From assembly GCA_051294905.1 (NCBI GenBank), contig CM119371.1, positions 13,456,001-13,520,000 of the forward strand: a DNA stretch of 64,000 nucleotides, given 5' to 3'. This DNA comes from Botryllus schlosseri. Its lineage: Eukaryota. Of this stretch, positions 13,106 through 53,118 are shown piece after piece. The position numbers and the translations under genes were made by a program. The notes beneath the pieces are model-generated. The model was not told where the DNA came from and did no database searches. It saw only the letters and a program-made list of their open reading frames with translations. How positions within the stretch are numbered: position 1 is the first letter of the stretch; each line of letters opens with the position of its first letter.

Positions 13106-15101
13106 ATAAGACTCTTACAAGCCCCATGTTTTGGTATGCCCAAAGAGTCGATCGAATGCTAATCTCTTTCAAGTTGAGAGGAAAAGGACACGTTATGGTA
13201 TGCCCAAAGAGTCAACAGAGTGCCGAACTCTTTCACAAGCCCAGTGTCACGAAGAAGACACATTTTGGTAAGCGCAAAGAGTCAGCAGAATGCCAATCTC
13301 TTTTACAAGACCAGTGCCGAAAAGAAGGTGGCACATTTTGGCATGCACAAAGAGTAGACTGAATGCCAATCTCTTCTACAAGCCCAGGGCCGAGAAGAAA
13401 AGAACTCGTTTTGGTATGCCAAAGAGTCAACTGAATGCTGATCTCTTTTACAAGCCCAGTGTCACGAAAAAGACACATTTTGGTATGCGCAAAGAGTCAG
13501 CTGAATGCCAACCTCTTTTACAAGACCAGTGCCGAGAAGAAAGAGACACATTTTGGTATGCGCAAAGAGTCAGCTGAATGCCTATCTCTTTTACAAGTCC
13601 AGTGTCGATAAGAAAAAGACACATTTTGGTATGCGCAAAGAGTCAACTGATTGCCGATCACTTCTGCAAGACCAGTGTAAAGAAGAAAAGACACCTTTTG
13701 GTATGTATAATGAGATTTTTCAGTACTATCCTCTCATGCAAGCAAGGTGTTACAAGGAAAAGTAATGGAGCAAGGAATATTCAAGGCACCACTGCAGTAT
13801 TTGAGTGTGTTGTGCCATAGTCTCCAAGTCAAGATTTATGAGGAACAGACACATTTTGGTATGCGCAAAGAGTCCACAGAAAGATAATCTCTTTTACAAT
13901 CCCAGTGTTGAGAAGAAAAGGACACGTTTTGGTATGCCCAAAGAGTCAACTGACAGCCGAACTCTCTTGCAAGCCCGATGTCACGAAAAAGACACATTTT
14001 GGTATGCACAAAGAGTCGGCAGAATGCTAATCTCTTTTATAAAACCAGTGCCGAAAAGAAGGAGACACTTTCGGTTTGTGCAAAGAGTCGACTGAATGCC
14101 AATCTCTTTTAGAAGCCCAGTGTCGAGGAGAAAAGGACACGTTTTAGTATGCCAAAAGAGTCAACTGACTGCTGAACTCTTTTTACAAGCCCGGTGTCAC
14201 GAAAAAGACACATTTTGGTATGCACAAAGAGTCAGCAGAATGCCAATCTCTTTTACAAGACCAGTGCCGAGAAGAGACACATTTTGGTATGCACAAAGAG
14301 TCAGCTGACTACCAATCTCTTTTACAAGTCCAGTGTCAATAAGAAGAATACACATCTTGGTATGCGCAAAGAGTCAACTGATTGGCGATCACTTCTGCAA
14401 GACCAGTGTTAAGAACAAAAGACACCTTTTGGTATGTACAAAGAGATTTTTCTGTCTCATTCTCAAATTCAAGCAAGGTGTTATAAAGAAAAGTAATGGA
14501 GCAAGGAATATTCAAGGCACCGCTGTGGTATTTGAGTGTGTTGTACCATAGTCTCCACATCAAGATTTATAAGTAACTGACACATTTTGGTATGCGCGAA
14601 GAGCTAGCTGCAGACTCGTACAAACTACTGGATTTTCAAAAAGCGCAAATAGAACTACAACTACTCACTTTTCAAAACTAGCAACTACAACTAAAACTAG
14701 AACTACTCAATTTTCAAAACTCTTAACTAGAACTGAAACTAGAACCAACGACATTTAAAAATGAATACACCGCACAGTACAGTGCAAACTTTCGACTTAG
14801 CCCGCCAACGTACTTTCTGCTTCTCATTCTCAGAAAATTAATTGCCAACCTCTGGCGTAGAGGTTCCCAAGTCCTTGAATGTTAAGACCCGTACTGAACT
14901 GGATTTCATTCTCCTAGGCAACACATTAATTTTTATTTTATCGGAAATATTATACCTAGAATCGACTTCTTAAAACGACGGGGTTTCGAGTTTGAAATGG
15001 GAGAGATTTCGACCCCAAAACTCACCCGTTGGGGACGCCACTGTTTGGACTGATGACTCAGAGCTAGTAATGGCTGCACGTGCACAAACCTCATTAAACA
15101 G

Positions 15102-15209
15102 CTTCTTGGAGGTAAGGAACATCAATATACAATTGACTATTGCTGACGATTACCCCTGATGAGTGTCAGCCGAAAATATTCGGGTTCATTTCAATATGAA
15201 CATACTATT
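15102..15209. mobile_element. 108-bp PLE-type insertion (inverted tail plus forward hammerhead)
   Basis: 17-bp direct repeat CAAACCTCATTAAACAG at 15085-15101 and 15210-15226. Confidence 0.75.
15142..15185 (+). ncRNA. Minimal type-I hammerhead ribozyme, family A (intact)
   Basis: ACCC-CUGAUGA-G(UGUCAGC)C-GAAA-AUAU-UC^-GGGU; palindromic stem III AAUAUU; upstream GCUGAC pairs with loop II GUCAGC; predicted cleavage after 15181. Confidence 0.8.
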
Positions 15210-16169
15210 CAAACCTCATTAAACAGAACACCGGTATATCGATTCAGGCAAAACGACGGTACCTGCTTTCTATTTGTTCGGCAACTAATATGTTTTTCAA
15301 ATGTGAAACTAGAACTAGCACTACTTACTTTTCAATATCCGCAACTAGAACTACTCACTTTTTGAAATCCACAACTAGAACTATTAAAAAAAAACGTTAG
15401 TCGACCATCAAGTCTGGTCAACTGAATGCTAATCTCTTCTACAAACCCAGTGTTAAGAAGAAACAGACACGTTTTGGTATGCCCAAAGAGTCAACTGAGT
15501 GCCGAACTCTTTTACAAGCCCGGTGTCACGAAAAAGACACATTTTAGCATGCACAAAGAGTCAGCAGAATGCCAATCTCTTTTACATGACCAGTGCCGAG
15601 AAGAGACACATTTTGTTATGCGCAAAGAGTCGACTGAGTGCCAATCTCTTTTGCAAGTCCAGTGTCGAGGAGAGAAAGACACATTTTGGTATGCGTAAAG
15701 AGTCGACCGAGTGCCAAACCCTTTTACAACCCAGTGTAAAGAAGAAAAGATACCTTTAGGTATATAAAGATACCTTTAGGTACATTTTTAATAAATCATG
15801 CTTACTCTCAATAACAGCGGTTCTCAAACTTTTTCAGACAAGCCCCCTTTATGATAGTGAAAAATTTCGACCCCATTATCATCATATCACAAAATGTAAC
15901 CGAATGCTAGCAATACCAACAGATAGATAGTTTAATGGCATAGGTTATGATTGTTGATGAGAGGAATCTCAAATATAAAATTCCAAGTATAGACACAGCA
16001 ATAAGTTTAAATTGTGGGTAAATCGAGTAGGCCTAGAGTGCGAAAAATATTTTCAGGTGACCACAGCTTCACCCGCTCGCCCTTTCCCCCAAGAGGGGCA
16101 CGCCACTTAGTTTGAGAACGACTGCTCCAATTTAAAAATCTTATTTTTTTCTTCGTTTTTCTTATATAT

Positions 16170-16368
16170 ATATCGACTGTAGCAAGAAACCGAACACCAG
16201 CAAAAACAGAAAGATGCGAGCGTTGTACACTATTGAATGAGGTGTGACATAATACTTGGGGTGATAGTATCTTTTTCGCCGAGTCTTCGATTCAGAATTT
16301 CTTTCAAAATCTTCGGCACGCACTTGAACAACGTTCTTGATGCAGTGCTTGATGACTTTAGGTCACAG
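16170..16368 (-). pseudogene. GPS (GAIN autoproteolysis) motif remnant
   Basis: SACRRF*...QRSHLSVFAGVRF; HL^S-x-F-A-G matches the GPS cleavage consensus, and the R codon CGC is one change from Cys TGC. Confidence 0.6.
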
Positions 16369-17804
16369 CTAAGTCGTAATGAAGAAGTGTTTTTGGAAAT
16401 TGATTAAAATCAAAATTCATAAATATGAATGCAAATAATTCGACTTCTTGCATAGAGGGCAGTGGTTCTCAACACTTTATTCGACACGCCCCCTTATTGT
16501 CATATCAAAAAATATTAAAGAGCAACCTTGACCCTTTCGCCGCGGGTGGATCCTAGAGGATCCATGCACAGTTTTTCACAAACACGCTTCAATCAATTAA
16601 CGACATCTTGCGTTGTAGGGGTCATAAACAGTTACAATGATCATCTATAAATAGCGTTTGTCGATAGGCATACGACCAGCTATATATAACCCATTGCCTT
16701 ATGGCATAACCTGTTCAAAATGCAGATTGAATACAGAAAAACGTTTCCCACAAAATACAATGTGTAGCTCAGTTCGCCTGAATGAACGCTAATCTTATAA
16801 TTCCTTATATCTTCCGTTCTACACGTCGTAAGCAGAGTTGTCGTTTTAGAGTAGTTGTTGATCGCAAGAGTTCATTGCAACCATAATATCGGGAATTAGT
16901 TGGATAGAACACGCTTCAAATTTGTGTGAAATAAAGCAATATTCTGTTACATGAAAAATGCCGCGCACGTATGAGCATTGCCGCATAAGGCCATATACAT
17001 TCACTTACGATTGTCTTATACAGTTGAATGTTACACACATAGTCAGATGCAGTCCATAACACTTCAACAAGATCAGTATCACGAAGTTTGGTCTTATATA
17101 ATTTACACGACGCCAGTGCTAAACACTGCAGACATGGGTGTGTAAGTTGGCGCGAGTGTATGGTACTCGCGCCTGTAATAACAACATCATACAGACAGTT
17201 GAATCATCCGTTTTATATGTTATACGAAGTTACTGTGGACTTCATTGAATAGATGTTGATCATATGCCCATATACTGACGAACCTGTATCGGACATTCGA
17301 TGTGTAGAACACGTTTCAAATTGATATGAAATGAAGCAACAAGAGAAATCGCGCGCCTATGAGAAGTGTCAAACTAGGCAATATATTTACTTACGATGGC
17401 CTTGTGCAGTTGCAAATTGAACATTTTGTTAGTTATGTACGATCAATAGTATCTATAAGATCAGTAACATGGATTTGGACTTATATAACTGGACCAGGCA
17501 AAGCCAAATAAACACGAATTACATCGCGCGTTGCCTCTATCGCGATGACGTAATCAGCGGCGGCCGTGAGTAACGCTTATAACGAAAACTTCCCAGTCGC
17601 GGTGCGCTCGGCTGCGTAAAGATTTCAAGCTCAGTAATGTCTTGTTTGAATGCCGAAATTGATATGTAAGACAACCACGTGGTCATTCACCATGGGAAGG
17701 ATTATGTATCACGTCATGTGAAAACGAAAAACAAATTTCTCTTTCACTTTTGAGAAATCGCGTAGACTGGTTTCAATATCATCGTCACCTCTCTCGCCTG
17801 AGCC

Positions 17805-17885
17805 TTCCGAGTAGCTCAGTTGGTTAGGCTGCTATTTCCTGATCACGGCGATATATTGGGCGTCGGTTCAAGTCCCGTTGTTCGC
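17805..17885 (+). mobile_element. tRNA-like pol III head (SINE or tRNA pseudogene)
   Basis: A box TAGCTCAGTTGG and B box GGTTCAAGTCC; no closing acceptor stem. Confidence 0.55.
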
Positions 17886-19926
17886 GTTTAATGAACTTTT
17901 TGGTTGATGCATTAAAATTTGGCCCGGAGGCCGACCGAAAAAATTTCCAGCTGGATATCTTGTTACACATAATCATGTGCAATGATAGCAAGTAGCTCAT
18001 GAATATTTTAGGGTTTTGGTGCCTAATCCCTTTTTACTCACGTAATCAAAAGACATATGCTCATTGAGTAGCCCAAGTCCAATCCAGTAATGGAATAAAT
18101 GATAGACCAATTAGAATATTCACAGAAAACTGTGGTACTAAAACAAACAATGTGATGTAAATACGTTAAAGCAGCTTACCTATATGGGTCAATGGCTACG
18201 CATCAAGGCTGCAAGTATCTGCAATCATTTCTAGTCAGTAGCAGGACTCATCTTTATATACCACTCTTCGGTCGGGGACCTTTTTCATCTGAAGAGCAAT
18301 ATTTGCCCATTTTTCTTTCCATTTCAACTCTCAAAGAGCAATACATGTCAATCAACTGTTACATCACAATTGAAAATTTGTGATGTCATGGTAGCACCTA
18401 TACAATCTCACTACATGGGATTCATCGTGTTGCGCCTCATTTTATCTGTAAAAACTCGTACTAATCATGCTTGCATAACCTAATTTGAGCATGTGAACCT
18501 CGAGTTACGAGAACTTGGCTTTGTAATGATCCTCCTTTTAAATGCAGGAACCCATGATCACGTGCGTAAGTGGAGCCAAACATGGTCACTACAGCAGTAT
18601 ATACCTAATGTATGGTGTGTTACATCAGTGACGTGGGGTCGGGGGAAGCAAGTGAGTCAGTTCGTCACCTGTCGCCACGAAAATTGTGAAACCTTCAATT
18701 GCCATTGGTATTTTCTATCGATGTTCATGAATGGCCAAATTTTAAACATTTTCCTTCCTAAATCAGGCGATTTGCATATTTAATATTTGAAAATAAAGCC
18801 TGAAACGAGAGGTTATGCACCGACGGGCCAAGCTTCGCAGTTGATACCGTAATCCATCGTAAAAGCTTACAATTTATATAAACTGATAATAATAGAATGT
18901 ATGATGATTAATTGCATGTCGCAACGATTCCGAAAATCTAAATACTGCTCGACTTCACAATTATCCAAGTATTTGGAGGAAACATATAACGCTACGTCAC
19001 ATGCCTACATATTATCGCCGGTAGTACAAAGCGACTTATCATTCAAGCTAGCTATGGCATTGTTTGATATTCGAGTTTGTAATTGAGAATGTCACTTATT
19101 CCACAGCAGTTCATTTCGCGCTGTAGATCAGGAAGACTGCATATTTAGTTGATAACTTCGTTGTCATATGGACGATGCCAAGTCTGCTATTCTCTTTCAT
19201 CAATCAATGTATCGTGCAATCCAAGATTTCGAGTCGGGTACATCAAATTCGTGAGCGATATTGGTCGCCAGCGCGACAGCAACTTAAATTTGGGGATTTT
19301 GAAAAGGGGGGTTTGAGCCCCTAACCGTGATGACGGCAATTGTCTTTACCTCTCACAAGACATGTTTATACTGTCACGAGAATAATTATTTTGGTCGTGA
19401 TGAAAATTAACTACCAAGTTGCTGCAATATTGATCAATTCAATTAATTCAATCAACTGCACAGAAACCAACTTCAAGCTCACCTTTATGCTGAACTTGTA
19501 GTGGACGGTCCTCACTATCTTCGAGTGACTAAGGGCTTCCAAGTATATGTAGTACACAACCTGTAATCAAGATACATATTCAAAACACCCCCCATCATGA
19601 AAATGGCTCGGTTCTAATTTTCTGATTGGACTTTTTGAAGAATATCAGGTCATTTTTCAAAGACTATGAACCACCAGGGATACGAAGTCAGAAATGAAGG
19701 TACCATTCGAAAGCAAGTTTCCGGCCCTAACTAATAAATTCACCTAGAAGTAAGTTTGAAATCTTGAAAAATTTATCAGTTTATAATCTGAATGTGACAT
19801 AGGAAATCACACATTTCAGTATGGCAAACCAGCCCCACTACTCTCCTACAATATATGGACATGAAGAGCTTCTTGGAGGTACAGAACTTCAATATACAAT
19901 TAAATAGTATATTCATATTGAAATGA

Positions 19927-19970
19927 ACCTGAATATTTTCGGCTGACACTCGTCAGGGGTAATCGTCAGC
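19927..19970 (-). ncRNA. Hammerhead ribozyme family A (one stem I mismatch)
   Basis: Same core CUGACGA/GAAA/UUC; the stem I 3' strand is AGGU. Confidence 0.7.
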
Positions 19971-20012
19971 AACTAGTAGAGAATTGGAAAGAACATTGTA
20001 TATCAACTAGTT

Positions 20013-20056
20013 GCTGACGATTACCCCTGACGAGTGTCAGCCGAAAATATTCGGGT
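20013..20056 (+). ncRNA. Hammerhead ribozyme family A (intact)
   Basis: CUGACGA 20027-20033, GAAA 20043-20046, UUC^ at 20052, stem I ACCC/GGGU. Confidence 0.82.
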
Positions 20057-20936
20057 TCATTTCAATATGAATATACTATTTAATATATGGACATATAATA
20101 ATGTATGCGATGACTGTACACTATAAAAAAAACAGAAATATGCCGGGGTTGTAAACTGTTAAAAGAGGTTTGACATGATATTTGGGTCGAATGTACCTTT
20201 TTTTCTGGACCTTCAATTGAGCGGTTCCTTCAAAATCTTTGTCAGATAACAAACTTTCTTCACACAATGTTGATGCCTTCTGGTGTCAGAGACCATTGTC
20301 AGAATGGAGAGGTCATTGCGAAAATTGTCTGTAATCAACATTGCTCAATATGACAACAGATATTTCTGCATCTTGTATATAACGGAAATCGCTTACATTT
20401 CATAACAACTGATGAGAGATAATATGGCATTATTTTCGTAATTGCCACGGCAAGAAACAAAATACAATCCTAAATTGATTTCACTATGCCGATTCTACTC
20501 ACATTATCAAAATACATATGCTTACCGAGTAAATCCAATTCATCATTGGCATAAAAAATACACCCATTGAAATCTTCACCGAAAACCGCAACACTAATCC
20601 AGAGCAATTTCATGTGCATATTTCCTAACAGGTCGCAGTAGGATGCTATTTATCAAGTCTGAAAGTATCTGCCATTTCTTATATGAATTTCAAGAAATGA
20701 AGCATATATCAGTAAAAAATTTCATTTTTCATTTTTCATAAATCATGATATTCTAGGGATGTGTACCAAGCTAATATTGTGTCGTCGGAAGCTAAGTAGC
20801 GGTTATAACAAATTGTGCCTGTGTGAAAGGTGACCATGACCATTCACCACTTTTGATTGCAAGCCCTTATGTTACAACCGTTGAATCGTGAATAGGGCTA
20901 TTATTTTTTGACATTTTTTGACATTACCAAAAACTA

Positions 20937-26010: not shown

Positions 26011-27884
26011 TATGTGGAAAAACACCTGATTTGCATTCGTTAGGTCAAAATGTGTTCAAAATTAAGTTAACCAAGGTCAAATAATGTCAAAATTTTGATT
26101 TTTTTGGTCAAAATCTTCTATTTTCAAGGTCAAAAAAATTGCCCTACCAATAACTCAGGCCCACAAAAAAAATCAAAAGGCATCATATGCTAAATCGATA
26201 CAGGGGTATGTCAGGGACGCTCAGTCCGAAAATGTTATCAGTTTGAGCCGAATTGGCACTAATTTTTCAGATATTGCTTCTTCCTACACAAACCATGAAT
26301 ATATCTCTTATATTGAGTAACATTGGTCATATCTAGCTTGTGAGGTAGCATAAGCCTCAGACTAGTTAATATCTTCCAACACTATCATAAGCACTGCAGT
26401 GTACCAAAGCGATGATATAGTAACTTTTATACTGAAAGACATGAATTAGAGGCTATTTTGCTGCATAGCCAGCTCACCCCAATTAGTACTCCATTTGAGC
26501 TGCAATAAAACAGAAAAATGACTGATATAACCTGCTCAAAGACAACATATTCTATTGAACTCAGGCTGTGTCCCACGTTAACATTTTCAGAAATTCTAAT
26601 TCATGGGTGTTCAAGAATATTTTATAAAAAGGAGCGATACAGCAAGACGTAGACAGGGCCATAATGACTCGGATTTGTTTCGACATCTGTGACCGGTACA
26701 CGATAAACACTTAGCCATTAAATATATGAGCTTTCACCAAGACAGCTTACAAAGAGTACCTTGGCACTTTTGGAGATCAATTCAAATGCTGGGGACCTCA
26801 TGCAGTCTGCAAGCATTACACTGAAACTTTGCTCGTGTGGACTCGAGGAATTGAGTCAAATCGATGAAATTTGGAATTGCCGTTGTTATGCCCGAGCCAG
26901 AAAACCAACATGATGATTTTAAATTGAAAGAAGAGAGAAGGAAGAAGCAAAGTTATTGTAGTAGGAAATTTTGGATTTGAAAAGATACCTGAATTATCAA
27001 CGAAATACTCACATAACTTCGCTTCTACCGGTTGGAATTGTGTTAAATTTGCTTTGCATTGTTTTTGTAGACAACGTATAAATTTTATGGGGAGGGGGGC
27101 AGTAAACTTTGAAAAAATTATTTTGAAATATTTTATAATAAATTCTAAATTTTAGATCTGTAACAGCTTCACGATTACCGGATGGAATTGATTGAAATTT
27201 GGTGTGCATCCTTCATTTATGCAACCGGACGACTTAATTACCTAGCAACCAAGATTGGAAGCTGTTAAAAAAATTTAATTTTCAAAAATTCACCAAAATA
27301 TGAACAAAATGTAAGGTTGCATTAAAAAATGCAGCATACCAAATTCGACTCCATTCCAAGCACTGGCAGTTGTCCAATTCCAACGTCAAGTTTCGATCAT
27401 TTGACAGAACGTACCGTCATATTTCTGGTGACCAATTCTGATCAAGCGCCGTGTACCAGGCAAGAAGGAAAAGCGACACTTCTTTATGTGTTTCATCTTG
27501 AAAAGGGCCTGCAATAGAGTTTAAGCAAAGACATCACAAATTGATATTAAAATCCATTATGAGACTTATTCGTCGAAAATTGGTAAGCCATAGTTAATAT
27601 AATTTGCATATGAATGCTTGCCACATAGAACGGAGAGGAAATATGTTTTATAAGTGATAGTCAATATCTGGACCTTCTTTTGTCCGTTCAATGTGAATGA
27701 TTATGAAACGTCACAAGCTTGTTGTAAGTTTCCTCAGAATTTATCCAATTGTTTTTTCCGTAATGTGGGAGTGTCTATATAGCAAGATAATTACTACTTA
27801 TAAGTCATTATTGTCGGCGAATATCAATCATTTGAAGAGCTTCTTGGAGGTGCAGAACTTCAATACACAAGTATATTCATACTG

Positions 27885-28250
27885 AAACATTACAATAACA
27901 ATCAATTTTCCATAGTTCCTCGTGGTCGTTCTCTTCTTCATTTAAAGGTTCTTGACTCAACCATTATAAAGCTGCTAAAGCCGATCCTCTATCGCCAGAA
28001 GGAACATCTCTACACGCTGGGAATCTTCCATTAGTGTTGTTTTGTCAATCGGCTGTTTTACAGCTGATTTTGTGTGCGTTGTACCGTAACCGTGCGTTGT
28101 TTACTGCCGCTCACGACTCTGTGTACTTGTCATTATTACGTCACAAAGACAAAATTCCTTCTGTATTTCGAACTTGGCTAACCTCATTTACTGGCGTTCA
28201 CTCCTGAAGAGGGCCAGTCGAAAAGCTTCGACTGGAATAAATTTGCAATA
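27885..28250 (+). mobile_element. 3' fragment of a Penelope-like retroelement (GIY-YIG C-terminus plus pLTR with hammerhead)
   Basis: 27885-28034 reads KHYNNNQFSIVPRGRSLLHLKVLDSTIIKLLKPILYRQKEHLYTLGIFH*, matching the F-x-I...L-x-x-L-[ED]...I...P-x-L terminal motif of PLE endonucleases; followed by a hammerhead and AATAAA. Confidence 0.75.
28190..28236 (+). ncRNA. Hammerhead ribozyme family B in a Penelope-like pLTR
   Basis: UUCACUC-CUGAAGA-G(GGCCAGU)C-GAAA-AGCU-UC^-GACUGGA; palindromic stem III AAGCUU; upstream ACUGGC pairs with loop II GCCAGU; AATAAA follows. Confidence 0.78.
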
Positions 28251-39000: not shown

Positions 39001-42000
39001 ATATTTAATTGTAATTTCGAAGAATAGAGAAGTAATCACACTGTTGGTGTTTTGTCTATCGGTCGTGATGCTAGAAAAATAAGGCCAGACTCTGTTTTAA
39101 AGGGGGACTGCACTCAAAAAATGATGTGGTCTCAAATTGAAGGACAAAACAAACCTATCGGTACTGTTACTTGAAAATGCGACCAGAAACTGTTGAAAGT
39201 GAGGAAAATTAGTACATTTGAAATCCGAACCATTCGGTGTCACTAAACCGAGTTATAAAAAGTGGATTAACAAGACTTTAAAGGGGCACTGCGCTCTAAA
39301 TATGATGTGATCTCAAATTGAGGTGCAAAAAAAAAATTGGCCGCAGCCATTTTCTTCAGAACGCCACCATATTGGAGCTGCAATTCATTGAAATTTCCAC
39401 AGGACCATCACACTCCAGCAGTCAAGCACAGATCGAACTTTATATCGCTGTCAGCCGATGTTATGAAGGAAATATGTCGTGCACGCCAAGGTGGTTTAGA
39501 TACCGCGTTCAACGGAAGATGTCCAGTAGGGCTCTTCAAAAATGAATACACTCTTCTTTCTTAAAGAAATAGAATACACTAGGCCTGATTTTGACATAAA
39601 TCTCCTGAGCATCTTCCGTCGAACGCGGTATCTAAACAACCTTGACGTGCACAACATATTTCCTTCATAACATCGGCTGACAGCGATATAAAGTTCGATC
39701 TCTGCTTGACTGCTGGAGTATGATGGTCCTGTGGAAATTTCAATGAATTGCAGCTCCAATACGGTGGCGTTCTGAAGGAAATGGTTGGGGCCAATTTTTT
39801 TTTTGCACCTCAATTTGAGACCACTTCATTTTTAGAGTGCAGTGCCCCTTTAACCTGAAAATGAGCATTCAACAGAATGGCTTGGTATTCGGGTCATAAT
39901 ACCATGACCCGAGTCAAAACCATAAAATTAAGATTGACTTGTGACTTGGAGCTTTGTGAATTGGTTGCAGCTCTGCGCATAGATTCTAATTCGTATTTTC
40001 GGAATCACAGTGACACTAGCTTTCGATCAAGATTACTTTTATTAAATTTTAGCTCGGATCGCCAGCTATAGGACTACCAATTTATGCTTCTTTGAGATCA
40101 GTCAGCAGTAAACCACTGGGTATTCAAGCGTGGCGACGGCAGTAGCGCATCTATCAGGAGGTTAGTAATATATACTATACACAGCAAAAGTTACTCCGAG
40201 AGACAAAATTACCTGCATATGGAGCCCGACAACTTTCTCGCCAGGCAGAGAGCAAACCAGCTTCATGAGGCAACGCGTCTTTCTTTCGGTCATCTGATGG
40301 TACATGGGCAGGAAATTGGTTTTGTAGATCTGATAAATCAATAATAACGGCATTGAAAAAGTGCCAAGTCACATTCGAACATACAATAAAGTAGGTTGCT
40401 AGCCAGTGGGTCGTTGTGCTATGTCAAACCAATGATGTCACTAGGCCAGTGCTTTTCAACCTGTGTGACGGTTCGCACTGGTGCGAATGAAAAAAATTGC
40501 AGTGCGAATGACGAGCATGGTGCGAACGGTGCGAATGAAAATTCCGGATGAGTGCGAATGACGAAGATGGTGCGAACGGTGCGAATGAAAATCCCGGATG
40601 AGTGCGAATGGAAATCGTTAATAATAATAATTGTTAATTTTTCTGACCCGGAATAATTCAAATAAACCTTATAGGAAATTCAAGGGCAGTGTAACTTTTG
40701 TTGTTGCATGCGACGCAATTGTAAAAACTTGTTCAACTTACAACGCACGACTAGTCGTAGCTCTCACAAGCCGTAGTGAATTAATATTTTCGAACTGTAA
40801 TTATTAAGTAATCAAAAGCCTGGTTTGGAAGCTGCATGGTGTAGTGGCGGATATACCGTACCGTATATCAGCACGTCTGAGCCTTCGACAGGCTGGGAAA
40901 ATGACGTTAAATTGACTTTCTGCTTACTTTCGCTAAAAAATCATCATACTTCCGTAATACCTGTTCGATTAGTGCGAGGTAATGATAGTAGTAAATGCCC
41001 TCATTACAGACTCCCATTTGCAGGTTACTGTAACGCAAGTTTTACCCCTTTAATGGTTATTGAAGTATGGACTGCAAAAGGTATAATTTTGGCTCGACAT
41101 TCGACACAGTGCCAGAGCTAATATGTATGTAATATTTGTTTAATTTATGCAAAAATTCTGCTATAGTTTTTACAAATCCAAGGTCACGGTGTTGGGTACT
41201 GGAGCGAATAAGCGAGATACGCAGAAAATATGGTTTTATCATGAGAATTCATGATAACATTTGCCCGACTGGTTTTTCTGGAAAACATGGTCGAATACCG
41301 TTGGGATGAACTACTGTAGGGACTATGGATGTGCAACGAGCGAGTTCAGGTCTATGAGACTCGTTCATTTCGAGGGCAACCCCTTCTGCGTCGGGTCACA
41401 TGACGACGGAAAGTTTTGGTCATCAAACGGCTGCTAAAGTGCGGTGCCAAAACATAATCGTCGACAAAACCTTGGCCAAAAAATGACCGATACTGCATAG
41501 ATGGCCAAACCATTTGATATGGATATGCTCCATTGTCGGCACGGAATAGTCCCGTTCTTGCAACTTGAGTAGAGCAGGGCTGTCAAAATCAACTGACGTC
41601 GCGGACGGAATTCAACACTTCAGATCGCTCGCGTGCCGCACCTAAATTCGCCATTCCCAAAATACCTCAAAATCCATCCCTTATTTTTCATTTGAATACT
41701 CCATTAACCAGCGTATATACACAATAGTGTTTTATATTATATTACGGATCATAGGGGTTCTATTCTATAGCTGCACCTTTAATTCGCAAACAGTGGAATT
41801 GGCAATATTATGATGATTGGCGGATGAGTGAAGTTATAAGCCTATAAAGCAGTATGGCTCTAACGATTGTTTAAGTTGGCATATTTCTATGCTCCCTTCG
41901 CTTTAGTGATATATTGGCATCAACCCTGCAAATGCGTTGTGAGGAATGGAAACACGGACGTTGGAATTTGTTTCATAGTATTATATCGCGAATCGAGTTT

Positions 42001-48000: not shown

Positions 48001-51000
48001 AATTTTTCAAAATTTTTTTATGAACTCAGAATTCAGAAAAGAATAACATGTGTAAATATTGGACAATTCTGAGGGTATGCATTAGAAGTGTCAAAAAAAA
48101 GCTAAGTATTAATGGAATTAGTATGTAGTTTCACCCAAACTAGTCTAAAACATATCAATTAGGGTATGAAGTACAAGTAGGGCCAAAAACCAATTCGAGT
48201 ACTTCATATTGACATATTGAGTGACTGACTAACTCTGGTCAGGAGAGACTTGAAAATAAAAATTTGCTAGTGCTCAACAAGGAGTAGATTTGTACCGATA
48301 TCGGAACTAGGCTTTCTTCCAATCGCCCAAAGGAGACATTCGACGTCCGCTTCCACAGTTTCGCCAGAGGGCTCACTCGATTGAATCATCACCTGCATGC
48401 AAAATATGTTTTCATACGCACAGTCATAGTCAAGTCTGCAGTTATTGAATGAGAATAGCCGAGTCATGCTGCACTATTGATAATTACTATGAAGATAAAT
48501 GAACAAATATTTGATTGGATATTTAAAAATGAAGGTATTTCCCGGAATTATGCACAAAATCGAATTATTTGCATGATTTTGGAACCAGAAAAAGGTAATG
48601 CTTACATAACCTAGCTTGTATGATATATTCATTTCGAAATGAACCAAAATATTTTCGGCCGACACTAGACAGACAAGACTGTGTCAACAAAAAAATTTCG
48701 TGTACCATCTCAAAATAGTGCAGACACTCTGGTATTTGACATTTCATGCTGGTGACGTCATATTTTGTGATACGATTGTTGATATACGATGTTCTTTTGA
48801 ATTCTCTACTAGTTGCTGACAACTACCCCTGACGAGCGTCTGCTGAAAATATTCGCGTTCATTTCAATGTGATATAGGCTACCATTCAATTGTTTACCGG
48901 TACTGCAGTTCTGTACCTTCAAGAAGCTCTTCAAACCTAGTTTGTGTAAACACTCACTTACAAATACTGTTAAGGACCAGGATCAACGAGGCTGGATCAT
49001 ACCATTTTTGGCACGAAAATAACATTACGGCTGCTGGCTGAATGAACTAAGAGCTGCAGTGTTCCATTCATACATTGGAACTCTCAAGGAGTTTTCTGCA
49101 TTGTTCTTACAGCAGTAGACTATTGGTCGAGCTACCATAAGCCACGTGAGCAAAGAGAAATTTCGCCATGATGAAGAGAAATCGACCTGATATGGATGCA
49201 CCTCTGCCGACATTAACAGCAGAAACTTCAGCTGTACCAGCATGAACCATGATATATTTTAAAGAGCTTCTTAGAGGTACACCACTTCAATATACATATT
49301 CATCGAAATTCGATATCCATCGAAACGAACCCTAACATTTTCAGCTGACACTCGTCAGGAGTAATCGTCAGCAACTGGTAGAGAATTGGAAATAACATTG
49401 TTTATCAACGATCGTATCACAAAATATGACGTCACCGGCATGAAATGTCGAATACCAAAGCGTTCAATGTACTATTTTAGATGCTACACGTACTCCATTC
49501 AGAAGTCGCCAAAGCGGATCATTAATCCGCAACATGGTTTCATGAAGTTCAAGCGGGTATCCCTCTACCGCAAACCTATCAAAATGGTACTAAGTCGATG
49601 TAAAAATCATCTGATAAGACTGCCAAACAAGATTTTGTTGTTAAAGCAGCAACGTAACATATTGCCACATGCAAATTGGCATTGCAAACTTGGTAACACA
49701 AACCAACGTTTTCAATGGCGGTCTAAAAATCAATAATTTGCTTGTAACTTTTTCTGCACATTTTATAGACAAAGTTCTATGGAAGTGAGATGAAAACATG
49801 TTGATCCCGCAGATTTTAAGCCCAAAACTGGCATTCCAGCATAAGGGGTTATCTAGCTATCTATCTTAGAAATTAGCTATTTTTGGCTCACTCGGTGGAA
49901 TTGTCCGGTCACTAGAGGGTGCAAAAATCTGAAATCATGATAGAAGTAATTCATTGGAGATTTGGGATCAAATGTCAGTGTTACATTTTGAAATCCAAAT
50001 TTTTCTTTTTTTTTACTCTACCCGAATAGCCTACCCTATTCCCAGACTTAGGTCCGGCACAGGTATGAATTCAACTTGACAAATGCGAAAGGCTTGGTTT
50101 TAATGTGATAGCGATAGAATTGAACCAGGACCTAAGGATTGGAAGACCAGTGCTCTTACTACCGAGCTACGATCGAACAAATACGGAGCAACAGCTTGAC
50201 GTCACACTCAGTGCAATATCTTACAGTCATTTTTCCGCCGCTTTTTTCTACTTTCTTCACGTGTGAGAACTTGTGAACTTTTATGCCGGCATCTTCCATT
50301 TCTTTCGTGACGTTTTCGCTGATCATCGAGTCGAAATTTCGGAGAGCTTGATGTCTGAAGAGGAGTCAGCATTACTCAATTGCAAGAAAAACTCTCGATT
50401 TACAAAACATGCTATAACTACATCAAGCGGAAGTAGAAAATGTAAGGCGTAGAAATAAAAAAATGTAGATTTGGGAACTTTGGTTGACACCAGGGCTGTA
50501 ATGACTCGACTCAAGTCCGACCCGAGTCGCTAATTTTTGATGACTCGAGTCAATTTTGTTTTGACTCGACTTATACTCGAGTCATTGTGCATGACTTTAA
50601 CCTAGTCATATGACTCGTGACTAGGAGAGCCAAGTCAGGCATTTATTAGATTTCGAAGATTAGTAAAGTTATCACATCATTGGTTTTTCGTCTATCAATC
50701 CTGATACTTGGAAAATTGGGTCAAAAACTGTTAAGACTGAGGAAAATAATGATATTATGATTAGGAATGCGAGTCAATCTATACCACTCCAGCAGAGTTG
50801 AAAATAGTGGATTGAACTAAAAACTGAACAGTGAACATAATGATTTGGACTCGAGTCAAAACACTATGACTCAGATTCGACCCTATACTAGGTGACTTGG
50901 ACTCAGACTTGACTCGGTAGTGAATTGAAAATTACTCGACTTGACTCGACTCGAGTCAAAACTATGAAAGAGAGATTGACTTGTGACTTGGAACCCTATG

Positions 51001-53118
51001 ACTTGGTTACTTGAATACTGTACTGTACATACGCAATTACGCATTTTCCACTTCATTTTCAACTTGCTATTACAGACATACATGCTTGCCTGCTTGTTTT
51101 GTTCGGGGTTCAATCTATAGCACGATTTACAAACCATGTTACAGACCTTCTAATTATAAGATGTGTTTCGCATCCCAGACCGTTGAAAATTCCAGCCATC
51201 TCCACGGCGATGTATCCCGCACCGACGACAATGGCTTTCTTGGGAAGGGCTTCAAGTTCGAAGAAACCATCACTTGTGATTCCATACTGAGAAAAAAATT
51301 ATTTTATTTTCATGCAAGGAAGTCGCAGCATTAGGCCTAAAGAATAAATAATTGGTACAAGAGTCACTCATTGATCATGGATTAACGCTAAAGGTAAACA
51401 GATAGGTTCACACAGTCCATAAGTAGTACTTGCATTTTGGCAGATTCATGTAATTTACCTTGATATCTTTGAGATCCACAGCTAAATTACGAGATACCAG
51501 TAGGCCTACAAATTTGTATAATAACAGGAGTGGACAAAATGGTAAGAAAATCGTATTATCGGGCTTTGGGAAATTTCGAATACCAAAACTTCATAGTTTA
51601 TACCAAAATATATATAAGCCACTGCTTTAATCAGAGTTCGTTCAGACTTCAAAACAAATTTGTACCAAAAATGATTGGATGGCATTCCCTTCAGGACAAT
51701 GCTATTTATTTTGCAATGGATAAATAGTATCATCAATTCTGACACACGCCAGATACGATCGTCCAATTAGAAAATACACACATTGTATTGAATTGTGGAA
51801 GAGCAATCCGCCTGACTTGGCAGTGTCTAATACACAAATACAGTTCCGGAGGTACATAACTTCAATATCCCAACGAACATTATGTTCTTATTGGCAGAAT
51901 TATTCCGCTTCAAGTTTTTTGACTGACTGTTATTAGGAATGAATATCGGTAAGTGTGATTAACCAAATTCAAAATATAGGAATACTTTTTTCATTGTATC
52001 GTCTAGGCCTAGGTAACAATGACATGCAAACAGGGTCGGGAATTGCATATCATATCAAAATGTAAAGGTAACAGTATAACTGTAGTAAATTAGGCTCTAA
52101 AAATAACGGACTAACATAACTAGGGTGTCTGATATTGAAGACTACACCAAGTCGTTTCGACACCTTCCTATCGTTCATGGTATCGCAGTCTTGTGCTGTA
52201 TTGAAATGATGAAATTATTAGCAATAAATCGAATTTGAATTGCTTGTGGGGTTCTCTTTTTAATTAAAATGTAATCAAGAATCCAACATTATGCACCTGC
52301 AACAGCCTGCTGCTAGATGGAACGGAACTCTATACTCTGTGAACATATTATTAATGTTGTGTTGTTATTGAGGTATTCAGTATGTCAATTTGTCAAATAC
52401 AATTTGGTTAACGCCTTTCGATTTACTGACACTCGCTCCTGATTAGAGTGCGTCGAAAAGACGAAAAGCTGACAGAGGAGTAAATTTTGCAAAATGAATA
52501 TAATGTTTGTAGCAATATCTAATATCCTGATTTAATATTATCAAATAACCAACAAGCCTAAGATCACAGTCAATCCTGATGTCAACACAGAAGTATTAAT
52601 CTCACCTGCGCTCCAGGTATTTCGCCTTCTGACGGTATAACAGGATATCCCCCAGTGGCAATCAGGATATGGGGAGCTGTGTATTTTTTCCCTGCCACAG
52701 ATATTATCGGATACGGATCTTTCTCCCCAGTGAAGACGCCGTGACCCAAAATCTTTTCTACTTTCGCGTTGCCGAGCATCGTATCGTAAACTCCGTTCAA
52801 GCGTTGTATATACGCGTCGCGCCGGTCTTTGATGGCTTTCCACGTAAATTTCGGCTTCCCCGACAATTCAAAACCATAGTCCTTAGCGTCGTGCAGCGTT
52901 TCGGCAATTGAAGCGGCCGAATACATGATTTTTTTCGGCACGCAACCGACGTTGACGCAAGTGCCACCCAATCGTCCGTGCTCGATTACTGCGGCTTTTA
53001 CGCCGAACTCTGTGGCCCGCCTTGCGCTGGCAATCCCACCCGAGCCAGCACCCAATACCAAGTAATCAAATTTGGTAACGTTAGACATTTTTCTGATAGA
53101 TGTCAATCCACGAAGCAT
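35937..53118 (-). CDS. GSR: Glutathione-disulfide reductase, 8 exons: join(53118-52606, 51286-51147, 50354-50225, 48392-48296, 47261-47102, 45514-45379, 40329-40213, 36065-35937); 1422 nt, 473 aa
   Basis: FAD motif GAGSGG, redox motif [18 protein letters not shown] motif [10 protein letters not shown] motif [19 protein letters not shown] and C-terminal [12 protein letters not shown]. All introns are GT-AG and the phases (0,2,0,1,2,0,0) join into one open frame. There is no C-terminal Sec/Cys tail, so this is GR and not TrxR. Confidence 0.96.
36337..37129 (+). mobile_element. ~800-bp non-autonomous hAT (Ac-type) family retaining the transposase C-terminus; other copies at ~11850-12670, 24680-26146, 30803-31500, 45670-46508 (-), with fragments at 20892-21921 and 29000-29170
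   Basis: TIR TAGGGCG; TSD GTTATCAC; sister copies encode [18 protein letters not shown] (hAT dimerisation motif). Confidence 0.85.
37692..38204. mobile_element. Palindromic Kolobok-like MITE
   Basis: AGGGG...CCCCT termini, TTGA/TTAA flanks, long inverted arms. Confidence 0.75.
39282..39849. mobile_element. Palindromic Kolobok-like MITE
   Basis: Perfect TTAA TSD, AG...CT termini, ~250-bp arms; empty site CCTTTAACTG is seen in uninterrupted host copies. Confidence 0.82.
40213..40329 (-). CDS. GSR: GSR exon 7 (IYKTNF...KVVGLHMQ)
   Basis: tatcag acceptor, CAG|gtaat donor, MKLVC and VVGLHM motifs. Confidence 0.93.
40447..43257 (+). mobile_element. Decayed hAT Buster-family transposon in GSR intron 6
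   Basis: TIR CAGTGCTTTTCAACC; perfect TSD CACTAGGC; GTGCGAA repeats; C-terminal relic [29 protein letters not shown] (~42965-43055). Confidence 0.85.
41575..42390. mobile_element. hAT element nested in 40447-43257
   Basis: Termini CAGGGCTGTCAAA / TTTGACACCCCTG; TSD GAGTAGAG/GAGTAGAC. Confidence 0.75.
43943..44295. mobile_element. hAT MITE with CGCCCCCC repeats
   Basis: TIR CAGTGGTTYCCAAC; perfect TSD ATCTAGGT. Confidence 0.85.
45379..45514 (-). CDS. GSR: GSR exon 6 (LFDG...[12 protein letters not shown]...NVK)
   Basis: ttccacag acceptor, AAG|gtgggt donor. Confidence 0.93.
45670..46508 (-). mobile_element. Copy of the ~800-bp hAT family in GSR intron 5
   Basis: Perfect TSD GTAATCAC; reverse complement of 36337-37129. 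Confidence 0.82.
47102..47261 (-). CDS. GSR: GSR exon 5 (LDKVGV...[14 protein letters not shown])
   Basis: tttcag acceptor, gtaaa donor, GDV and [10 protein letters not shown] motifs. Confidence 0.94.
48296..48392 (-). CDS. GSR: GSR exon 4 (VMIQ...[14 protein letters not shown])
   Basis: tgcag acceptor, G|gtaca donor, LLWAIGR motif. Confidence 0.9.
48815..48858 (+). ncRNA. Degenerate hammerhead family A
   Basis: Core CUGACGA/GAAA/UUC retained; mismatches in stems I and II and in the pseudoknot. Confidence 0.55.
49329..49372 (-). ncRNA. Hammerhead family A variant, sense to GSR intron 3
   Basis: ACUC-CUGACGA-G(UGUCAGC)U-GAAA-AUGU-UA^-GGGU; the substitutions give G-U wobbles. Confidence 0.6.
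50000..50170 (-). mobile_element. tRNA-derived SINE fragment in GSR intron 3
   Basis: Minus strand GTAGCTCGGTAGTAAGAGCAC...GGTTCAATTC. Confidence 0.5.
50225..50354 (-). CDS. GSR: GSR exon 3 (HQALRNFD...GGKMT)
   Basis: cttcag acceptor, gtaag donor, LRxFD motif. Confidence 0.92.
51147..51286 (-). CDS. GSR: GSR exon 2 (YGITSDGFF...HLIIR)
   Basis: ttttctcag acceptor, AG|gtctgt donor, GAGYIAVE motif. Confidence 0.93.
52606..53118 (-). CDS. GSR: GSR exon 1 (MLRG...EIPGAQ)
   Basis: ORF 52582-53118; donor CAG|gtgag; in-frame TAG upstream of the first ATG. Confidence 0.95.

Follow-up and report, generated by a model that had tools for sequence, protein, structure and literature searches.

Two short insertions in the genome of Botryllus schlosseri, each bracketed by a target site duplication (TSD) and carrying a hammerhead ribozyme motif, are very probably dead-on-arrival, 5′-truncated copies of an autonomous Penelope-like element (PLE), a retrotransposon whose hammerhead they carry. 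They lie in a stretch of 64,000 nucleotides (GenBank assembly GCA_051294905.1, contig CM119371.1, positions 13,456,001 to 13,520,000 of the forward strand), which we call the window and whose first letter is position 1 of all window coordinates given below. The insertions, insert 1 (108 bp) and insert 2 (219 bp), correspond to the last 75–145 nt of a 2,692-bp unit that encodes a reverse transcriptase (RT), and this autonomous parent is a family without a match to any named, described one. A preliminary description of the same DNA had read them as a distinct non-coding element, retrozyme-like or non-autonomous and mobilised in trans, a reading that gave way because the copies are 3′ subsets of a unit with an 859-codon RT frame.

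Anatomy of the inserts and their coding parent

Insert 1 occupies 15102–15209 between exact 17-bp direct repeats (15085–15101 and 15210–15226), and insert 2 occupies 19863–20081 between exact 13-bp repeats (19850–19862 and 20082–20094; all four unstranded). These boundaries, already given in the preliminary description, held on direct reading and on a re-check by script, and in control flanks taken 100–400 bp farther out the longest common word was 4–6 nt for both inserts. The architecture described there was likewise reproduced: both inserts open with the reverse complement of one common end (...AAGAAGCTCTTC) and close with a forward copy ending ...TACTATT(T), 29 nt beyond the predicted UUC cleavage site, and the hammerhead core letters CUGAYGA, GAAA and UUC are found in these forward copies.

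BLAST against the parent unit resolved each insert into two arms of opposite orientation. The tail arm of insert 1 (15102–15134, minus strand; unit ~2658–2691, 87% identity over 38 nt) is the PLE tail alone, truncated at the tail boundary, the extreme case of a tail without anything else. Its tailless arm (15136–15209, plus strand; unit ~2578–2653, 94% identity over 78 nt) carries a hammerhead motif at 15142–15185 (plus strand, found with a regular expression for the motif), with predicted cleavage at 15181/15182 and a U at N7 through a CpG-to-TpG change. The tail arm of insert 2 (19863–20007, minus strand; unit 2548–2692, 98% identity over 145 nt) holds the end of the 3′ untranslated region, a hammerhead (19927–19970, minus strand, with A rather than G at position 1.1, window 19930, through a CpG-to-CpA change), the start codon and the tail. 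In its tailless arm (20003–20081, plus strand; unit 2575–2653/2656, 98% identity over 82 nt) lies a second hammerhead motif, at 20013–20056 (plus strand), with predicted cleavage at 20052/20053. The two arms form an inverted repeat (I23) of 82 nt per arm that is 98% complementary. The forward hammerheads of both inserts are rows of the alignment discussed below, insert 2 by way of locus L001, which is identical DNA.

The parent was recovered by searching the 495-Mb assembly with insert 2, for which most of the 85 matches listed share the first 144 nt and then run on. Pairwise BLAST of the fetched loci revealed one fixed end, a variable length from 146 to >598 nt and a frequent flip into an inverted copy. 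Extended from the fixed end, the repeat reaches ~2.7 kb and is 97–98% alike between copies; tandem copies on contig 16 are spaced 2,692–2,693 bp apart, giving a measured unit of 2,692 bp whose sense strand corresponds to the window minus strand for tail arms. One tandem array contains an open frame of 859 codons that runs over the unit junction, with its first ATG 54 nt before the 3′ end of the unit, so that a unit needs at least a partial copy upstream for a complete frame, a requirement already known for PLE units (Cervera 2014, PMC4209133). The frame matches Pfam RVT_1 (E = 7.8e-9, 36 bits against a cut-off of 29.6), and a protein database search returned 646 relatives at E ≤ 1e-10, mostly of 830–860 aa and on contigs of ~2.7–3 kb; a PDB sequence search with the element protein gave weak RT matches only. 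For the nuclease the evidence is less favourable to a PLE: Pfam GIY-YIG on the C-terminal 179 aa scored E = 0.021 (15.6 bits against a cut-off of 22.6), and PF01541 appears in the precomputed hits of 2 of 120 listed homologues. The genome search for tandem arrays and an attached open reading frame (ORF) that had been proposed at the outset thus turned up tandem 2,692-bp units and an RT frame, with a weak GIY-YIG signal.

The high copy number proposed earlier was borne out by 2,852 exact matches to a 34-mer, against 0 for a reversed-pattern control, which amounts to at least 2,852 hammerhead-bearing ends. Because the hammerhead lies 64–107 nt from the unit end, any arm longer than ~110 nt (~75 nt for a tailless arm) carries it.

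A BLAST search of the window with the 2,692-bp unit located the remaining copies, and every unit-related piece proved to be collinear with some part of the unit's last 252 nt. A solo fragment at 27834–27887 (minus strand) comprises the tail plus ~20 nt (unit 2632–2692, 82% identity over 61 nt), and comparison of its boundaries gave no clear TSD. An older two-armed insertion at 48624–48932, inverted then forward, joins a tailless arm (48624–48672, minus strand; unit 2599–2647) to a tail arm (48674–48932, plus strand; unit 2441–2692) within a decayed TSD of ~13 bp, of which 7 nt are exact and the longer imperfect match was read by eye. An older single-arm copy with a tail lies at 49262–49499 (minus strand; unit 2457–2691, 85% identity over 241 nt). 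Copies had been noted earlier near these three places (27833, 48700 and 49262) and possibly near 51845; at the last, a match does exist (51849–51893, minus strand, 78% identity over 45 nt), weak at E = 0.001 and a possible decayed tail fragment.

A distinct non-coding, ribozyme-bearing retroelement, either retrozyme-like or a non-autonomous PLE derivative with short master copies of its own mobilised in trans, would agree with copies that are short, non-coding, numerous and ribozyme-bearing. It also finds some encouragement at one locus (L075, C1:37767500–37769400), where a 359-bp internally deleted unit (1–154 joined to 2478–2692) is tandemly repeated on both arms of one head-to-head insertion, in the layout of animal non-LTR (long terminal repeat) retrozymes; such multimers could have come from a small circular RNA copied by a rolling circle, or from local re-insertion that happened repeatedly. 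That deletion junction, however, has four occurrences in the genome, all at this locus. The window copies are moreover all collinear 3′ subsets of the coding unit, with none in tandem, and inner break points vary between all independent loci examined, indicating that there is no short master copy. We consider a separate non-coding element highly improbable. Inverted arms within a TSD also recall a DNA transposon or miniature inverted-repeat transposable element (MITE) with terminal inverted repeats, but the arms are unequal, one having a 30–40-bp extra end, they consist of the 3′ end of a unit that encodes an RT and TSD length varies from 11 to 17 bp, which leaves that identity with a practically negligible chance. 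Both comparisons favour truncated copies of the coding PLE.

Fold and covariation of the hammerhead motif

The motif is a minimal type-I hammerhead with the core CUGANGA...GAAA...UH in ordinary type-I strand order, and a non-circular permutation of the hammerhead (Eckert & Weinberg 2023) was ruled out on that order. One layout is shared by five PLE families of this genome (A–E), of which the second was fetched 4.86 Mb away and further ones were reached through a 12-nt tail word. Read 5′ to 3′, it consists of a 5–6-nt upstream segment, 4 nt, the 4-nt 5′ strand of stem I and YUGANRA; then G, one nucleotide, the 5–6-nt complement of the upstream segment, 0–1 nt and C; then GAAA, a palindrome (AAUAUU, AAGCUU or AAGUCUU), H and the 4-nt 3′ strand of stem I. 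The 4-nt spacer upstream of stem I is G-N-U-N in the families of this genome. Stem III, being a palindrome of 6–8 nt, is presumed to work as a dimer. A9 and G12 are separated by only 9–10 nt (nine in the inserts), which leaves no room for a normal hairpin; stem II is reduced to the pair G10.1–C11.1 (10 G–C and 1 G–U among 11 sequences), and the 7–8-nt loop II pairs with the segment 4 nt upstream of stem I in a 5–6-bp pseudoknot. The predicted cut falls 14 nt before the start codon in the full element and 14–24 nt before it across families.

Covariation was counted in an alignment of 8 rows and 15 pairs (A3), that is, 120 cells, of which 118 (98.3%) pair, with 10 of the 15 pairs changed on both sides; none of 500 shuffles reached the observed values, and slid controls paired in 23–44%. 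Stem I, of 4 bp, pairs in 96.9% of its cells with three of its four pairs changed on both sides, and five of the six pseudoknot pairs are compensated. Among 78 PLE relatives fetched from metagenomes, six, at 57–64% protein identity, carry the short form with other compensated sequences, three of them on the strand opposite the ORF match and hence in inverted arms. Another 15 of the 78 loci carry an ordinary minimal hammerhead with a hairpin stem II, 14 of these at 30–38% identity. The fifteenth (L151) is a 68% relative whose ORF match contains a minimal hammerhead of this hairpin type on each strand, apparently through the nesting of a truncated two-armed insertion from a different PLE. When three short-form relatives were added to A3, the pseudoknot, C3–G8 and G10.1–C11.1 paired in 97.7% of 88 cells, with six of eight pairs compensated. 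The core is present in all 11 aligned sequences, with C3–G8 in six, U3–A8 in four and U3–G8 in one. These results support well the prediction that the motif is a conserved fold, and the covariation across five families and metagenome relatives upholds the original call of a hammerhead of the PLE kind.

Several observations weigh against this assignment, or against a role for the ribozyme in the spread of the element. The structure was derived from the same sequences that were used for counting, and these are related by descent. Rfam hammerhead models gave 0 hits at the gathering score in the whole window, and in E-value mode on the two inserts Hammerhead_1, the model named for the purpose in the preliminary description, found no match, the only hammerhead hit being RAGATH-1-hammerhead at 15.1 bits (E = 4.8), alongside spurious miRNA hits on the arms. 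A genome-wide Hammerhead_1 search scored 73 of 70,463 candidates only and carries no weight. Minimum-energy folds of four family representatives had z scores of –0.3 to –1.1 against shuffles and differed in structure between families, a method badly suited to a pseudoknotted dimeric motif. The replacement of stem II by a covarying pseudoknot would explain the misses by Rfam and by standard descriptors.

In RNA data aligned to the tandem junction (three raw-read runs and one contig run) no pile-up of ends was seen at the predicted site, an absence that carries no weight on cleavage since the full element had near-zero depth. Reads covered the last ~180 nt on both strands, 69–98% of them continuing into unlike sequence, as expected of truncated copies inside other transcripts, and depth over the first ~450 nt of the next unit was 0–3. 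A relative of family B with a destroyed core is abundant, making up 18 of the 31 sequences fetched through the tail word (contig 1, 0.29–3.7 Mb; L046, L048–L056, L059, L060, L063, L064, L066–L069), so the motif is not required for every lineage to spread. In this relative one A has been lost from UUGAAAA and CCGAAA has turned A-rich, and its copies all share sequence beyond the usual element end. The hammerhead is also dispensable for PLE insertion in vitro (Frangieh 2024, PMC11167929), and passages of Craig 2021 (PMC8557442) describe whole PLE clades without the motif.

Some of the same facts (three stems that are all minimal, no Rfam hit, no thermodynamic signal) would suit hammerhead-like letters that are a chance resemblance or a decayed relic without a conserved fold, as would the older window copies, which have decayed freely. 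Yet in the five families and the metagenome relatives stem I, the pseudoknot, the palindrome and C3–G8/U3–A8 persist through compensatory changes, and there is little or no variation at G10.1, C11.1 or the core letters. Chance or relic status is in our judgement extremely improbable, and the conserved hammerhead fold is retained.

A possible cleavage footprint at position 1.1, where the loci found with insert 2 as query have mostly A in tail arms and G in tailless arms, was rejected as a product of hit selection and CpG decay. In 100 unbiased ends this position is G in 96, A in 3 and C in 1, and genome-wide the CpA and TpG variants number 60 and 70 among 2,852 copies, a symmetry that reflects CpG deamination after insertion.

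Insertion anatomy and a proposed mechanism

The two-armed build recurs in this genome. In a sample of 100 exact hammerhead ends, the first along contig 1 in coordinate order, there were 19 head-to-head (–,+) pairs within 3 kb against 0 (+,–) pairs, so that 38 of the 100 ends belong to head-to-head pairs. Of the 19 pairs, 15 have the exact tail on a single arm, one has it on both and three lack it, with the proviso that exact matching can miss mutated tails. Independent choice of start would predict at most half, and the probability of at least 15 of 19 at 0.5 is ~0.01, which suggests that two RT start sites are coupled within one insertion event.

Break points were read in 30 loci fetched with insert 2 as query, from which L004, L012, L021 and L022 were set aside as repeats. 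Tailless arms have their outer ends at unit positions 2647–2668, except for one at 2635, leaving a tail of ~25–45 bp, and the arms abut or overlap by a few nucleotides. At the boundaries of 10 of 20 two-armed loci we found TSDs of 11–14 bp (mode 13; 17 bp in insert 1) against 3–10 in controls; the remaining 10 loci, most of which are older or have ill-defined ends, gave no TSD signal above control level. The TSDs are 74% A+T, compared with 60% for the window. One two-armed insertion recurs at L017, L018, L021 and L022 (contigs 4 and 1) with the same break points (2398–2687 and 2523–2659) and the same flank, which suggests that it lies within some other repeat or a segmental duplication.

The tails of families A–D have a 12-nt word in common, AAGTTCTGTACC (for example at window 19879–19890, minus strand). 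Followed by a base other than the T of family A, it has 1,476 matches in the genome against 227 for a reversed control, and the nuclease regions of families A and B are ~51% identical though their tails share the word. We regard it, on these counts, as a candidate recognition site for the start of RT.

We propose, from this anatomy and published PLE biochemistry, that the nuclease would cut both strands of AT-rich DNA ~13 bp apart and that, as the genomic ends suggest, both cut strands would prime reverse transcription. RT would begin at an internal position of the RNA, either the unit end (2692) or a neighbouring site at ~2647–2668, and the two short cDNAs would converge and be joined. The predicted product has inverted arms with their 3′ ends outward, an extra tail of 30–40 bp on one arm and a duplication of 11–17 bp around the whole. 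Acting on a tandem transcript as a dimer formed by way of its palindromic stem III, the ribozyme would cleave 14 nt ahead of the downstream unit's start codon. In L1 twin-priming, two cDNAs primed on two cut strands are likewise joined head to head; different element segments are joined there, whereas here both arms cover the same segment and form an inverted repeat.

A single first-strand cDNA that snaps back and copies itself would also yield two arms. In its favour, the arms abut or overlap by a few nucleotides. Of 17 pairs, 9 have the inner ends of their arms no more than 31 nt apart (permutation p = 0.02) and 5 no more than 15 nt (p = 0.12). These 17 pairs, though, were chosen by likeness to a short two-armed query and are a biased sample, in which the lengths of the two arms correlate weakly; arm-length symmetry as proof of snap-back was accordingly dropped as weak evidence from a biased sample. 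Snap-back should, moreover, put the tail on both arms, against the one-arm tail of 15 of 19 pairs, and extension of both strands has been shown in vitro for another PLE. We judge it unlikely, and prefer priming from both cut strands.

The preferred scheme agrees with what has been published for PLEs. Passages of Craig 2021 (PMC8557442) describe strong 5′ truncation with partial tandems, an adjacent inverted 5′-truncated copy and a 30–40-bp tail at one end, and for an Anolis PLE Frangieh 2024 (PMC11167929) reported cleavage and extension of both DNA strands, a preference for AT-rich cleavage and RT from two adjacent internal sites whose spacing equals the tail. The inverted-plus-forward build, which the preliminary description had ascribed to PLE integration, matches this signature. 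It had also held that 5′ truncation of an autonomous PLE would take away the novelty and leave the ribozyme call standing; since truncation, inverted arm and one-arm tail are the published signature, that is the outcome, though the family itself is unmatched to a named one.

Other repeats were recorded in the window. A satellite-like array spans 13138–15729 with units of ~72 and 143 bp (families D1, D2, D4 and D5); it is broken at ~14572–15398, and insert 1 sits within that gap. Between 29700 and 56250 there are many diverged copies (60–90% alike) of another repeat, with abundant GACTCGAGTCA-like words (families D3 and D6–D19), and inverted arms of 252 nt that are 93% complementary occupy 39278–39529 and 39602–39853 (I1). 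A hammerhead of family E, the fifth PLE family, lies at 28190–28233 (plus strand), with perfect 6-bp pairing between upstream segment and loop II and the palindrome AAGCUU. One of its stem I pairs is broken, an ATG stands 20 nt past the cut and there is no recognisable tail; this is probably an old copy.

Comparison with known elements and implications

The element resembles the canonical endonuclease-positive (EN+) PLEs (Penelope/Poseidon, Neptune and Nematis) as these appear in Frangieh 2024 (PMC11167929) and in passages of Craig 2021 (PMC8557442). Shared features are a single ORF with RT (its C-terminal region matching GIY-YIG below the cut-off), tandem units forming pseudo-LTRs (pLTRs), heavy 5′ truncation, an adjoining inverted copy, a 30–40-bp tail at one end, AT-rich targets and a hammerhead in the pLTR near the ORF start. 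Positions differ in detail: the cut is predicted 14 nt before the start codon here and lies 26 nt after it in the Anolis element, and the RT start sites are at +54 and ~+20 of the ORF here compared with +111–118 there (PMC11167929).

The hammerhead shares with the minimal hammerheads of metazoan PLEs (Cervera & De la Peña 2014, PMC4209133) its type I, a 4-bp stem I, G10.1–C11.1, the pLTR location, a very short palindromic stem III implying dimers and the core covariant U3–A8. That paper mentions variants with a small palindromic stem III, and in the rows compared from its printed alignment stem II is a hairpin of 3–8 bp. Here, 6 of the 9–10 nt between A9 and G12 pair with the 5′ flank instead of forming a hairpin. 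The published descriptor (stem II of 3–7 bp, loop of 3–10 nt, 'gaaannuh' of 8–9 nt) does not describe the present motif, in which stem II is 1 bp and G12–H17 spans 10–12 nt, and a text search did not find the word 'pseudoknot' in the main text of that paper. About 40% of hammerheads in general have a pseudoknot linking loop II to the stem I side, according to portions of a 2011 paper (PMC3088659) that describe a 4–6-bp pseudoknot holding stems I and II side by side and, among those hammerheads, in vitro activity with a one-pair stem II. The examples in these portions are mostly bacterial or phage, type II and monomeric with a normal stem III; the present one is type I, eukaryotic, PLE-borne and has a dimer-type stem III. 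As far as an excerpt of Li et al. 2026 (10.64898/2026.07.22.740005) goes, animal non-LTR retrozymes share a type-I hammerhead derived from a PLE pLTR and are non-coding; they are tandem repeats with one hammerhead per unit, whereas those in the window stand alone, vary in length and do not make up a family of their own.

The motif is thus a combination of known features and a modest variant. It is conceivable, and we put it forward tentatively, that one PLE lineage, comprising at least five families here and the environmental relatives at 57–64% identity, has an undescribed subclass of hammerhead that unites a one-pair stem II, a pseudoknot and a palindromic stem III. In PLE lineages farther removed, the hairpin form known from print is retained.

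For annotation, TSD-flanked inverted repeats of this kind are to be masked as PLE fragments and not taken for a new element, a MITE or microRNA-like hairpins. For ribozyme work, the predicted pseudoknot identifies upstream nucleotides that may be relevant to cleavage. For the biology of PLEs, this genome holds a large, young and clean set of insertions from which the RT start sites, the one-tail rule and the ~13-bp stagger can be read, and the pattern so read matches what in vitro work on a vertebrate PLE has shown.

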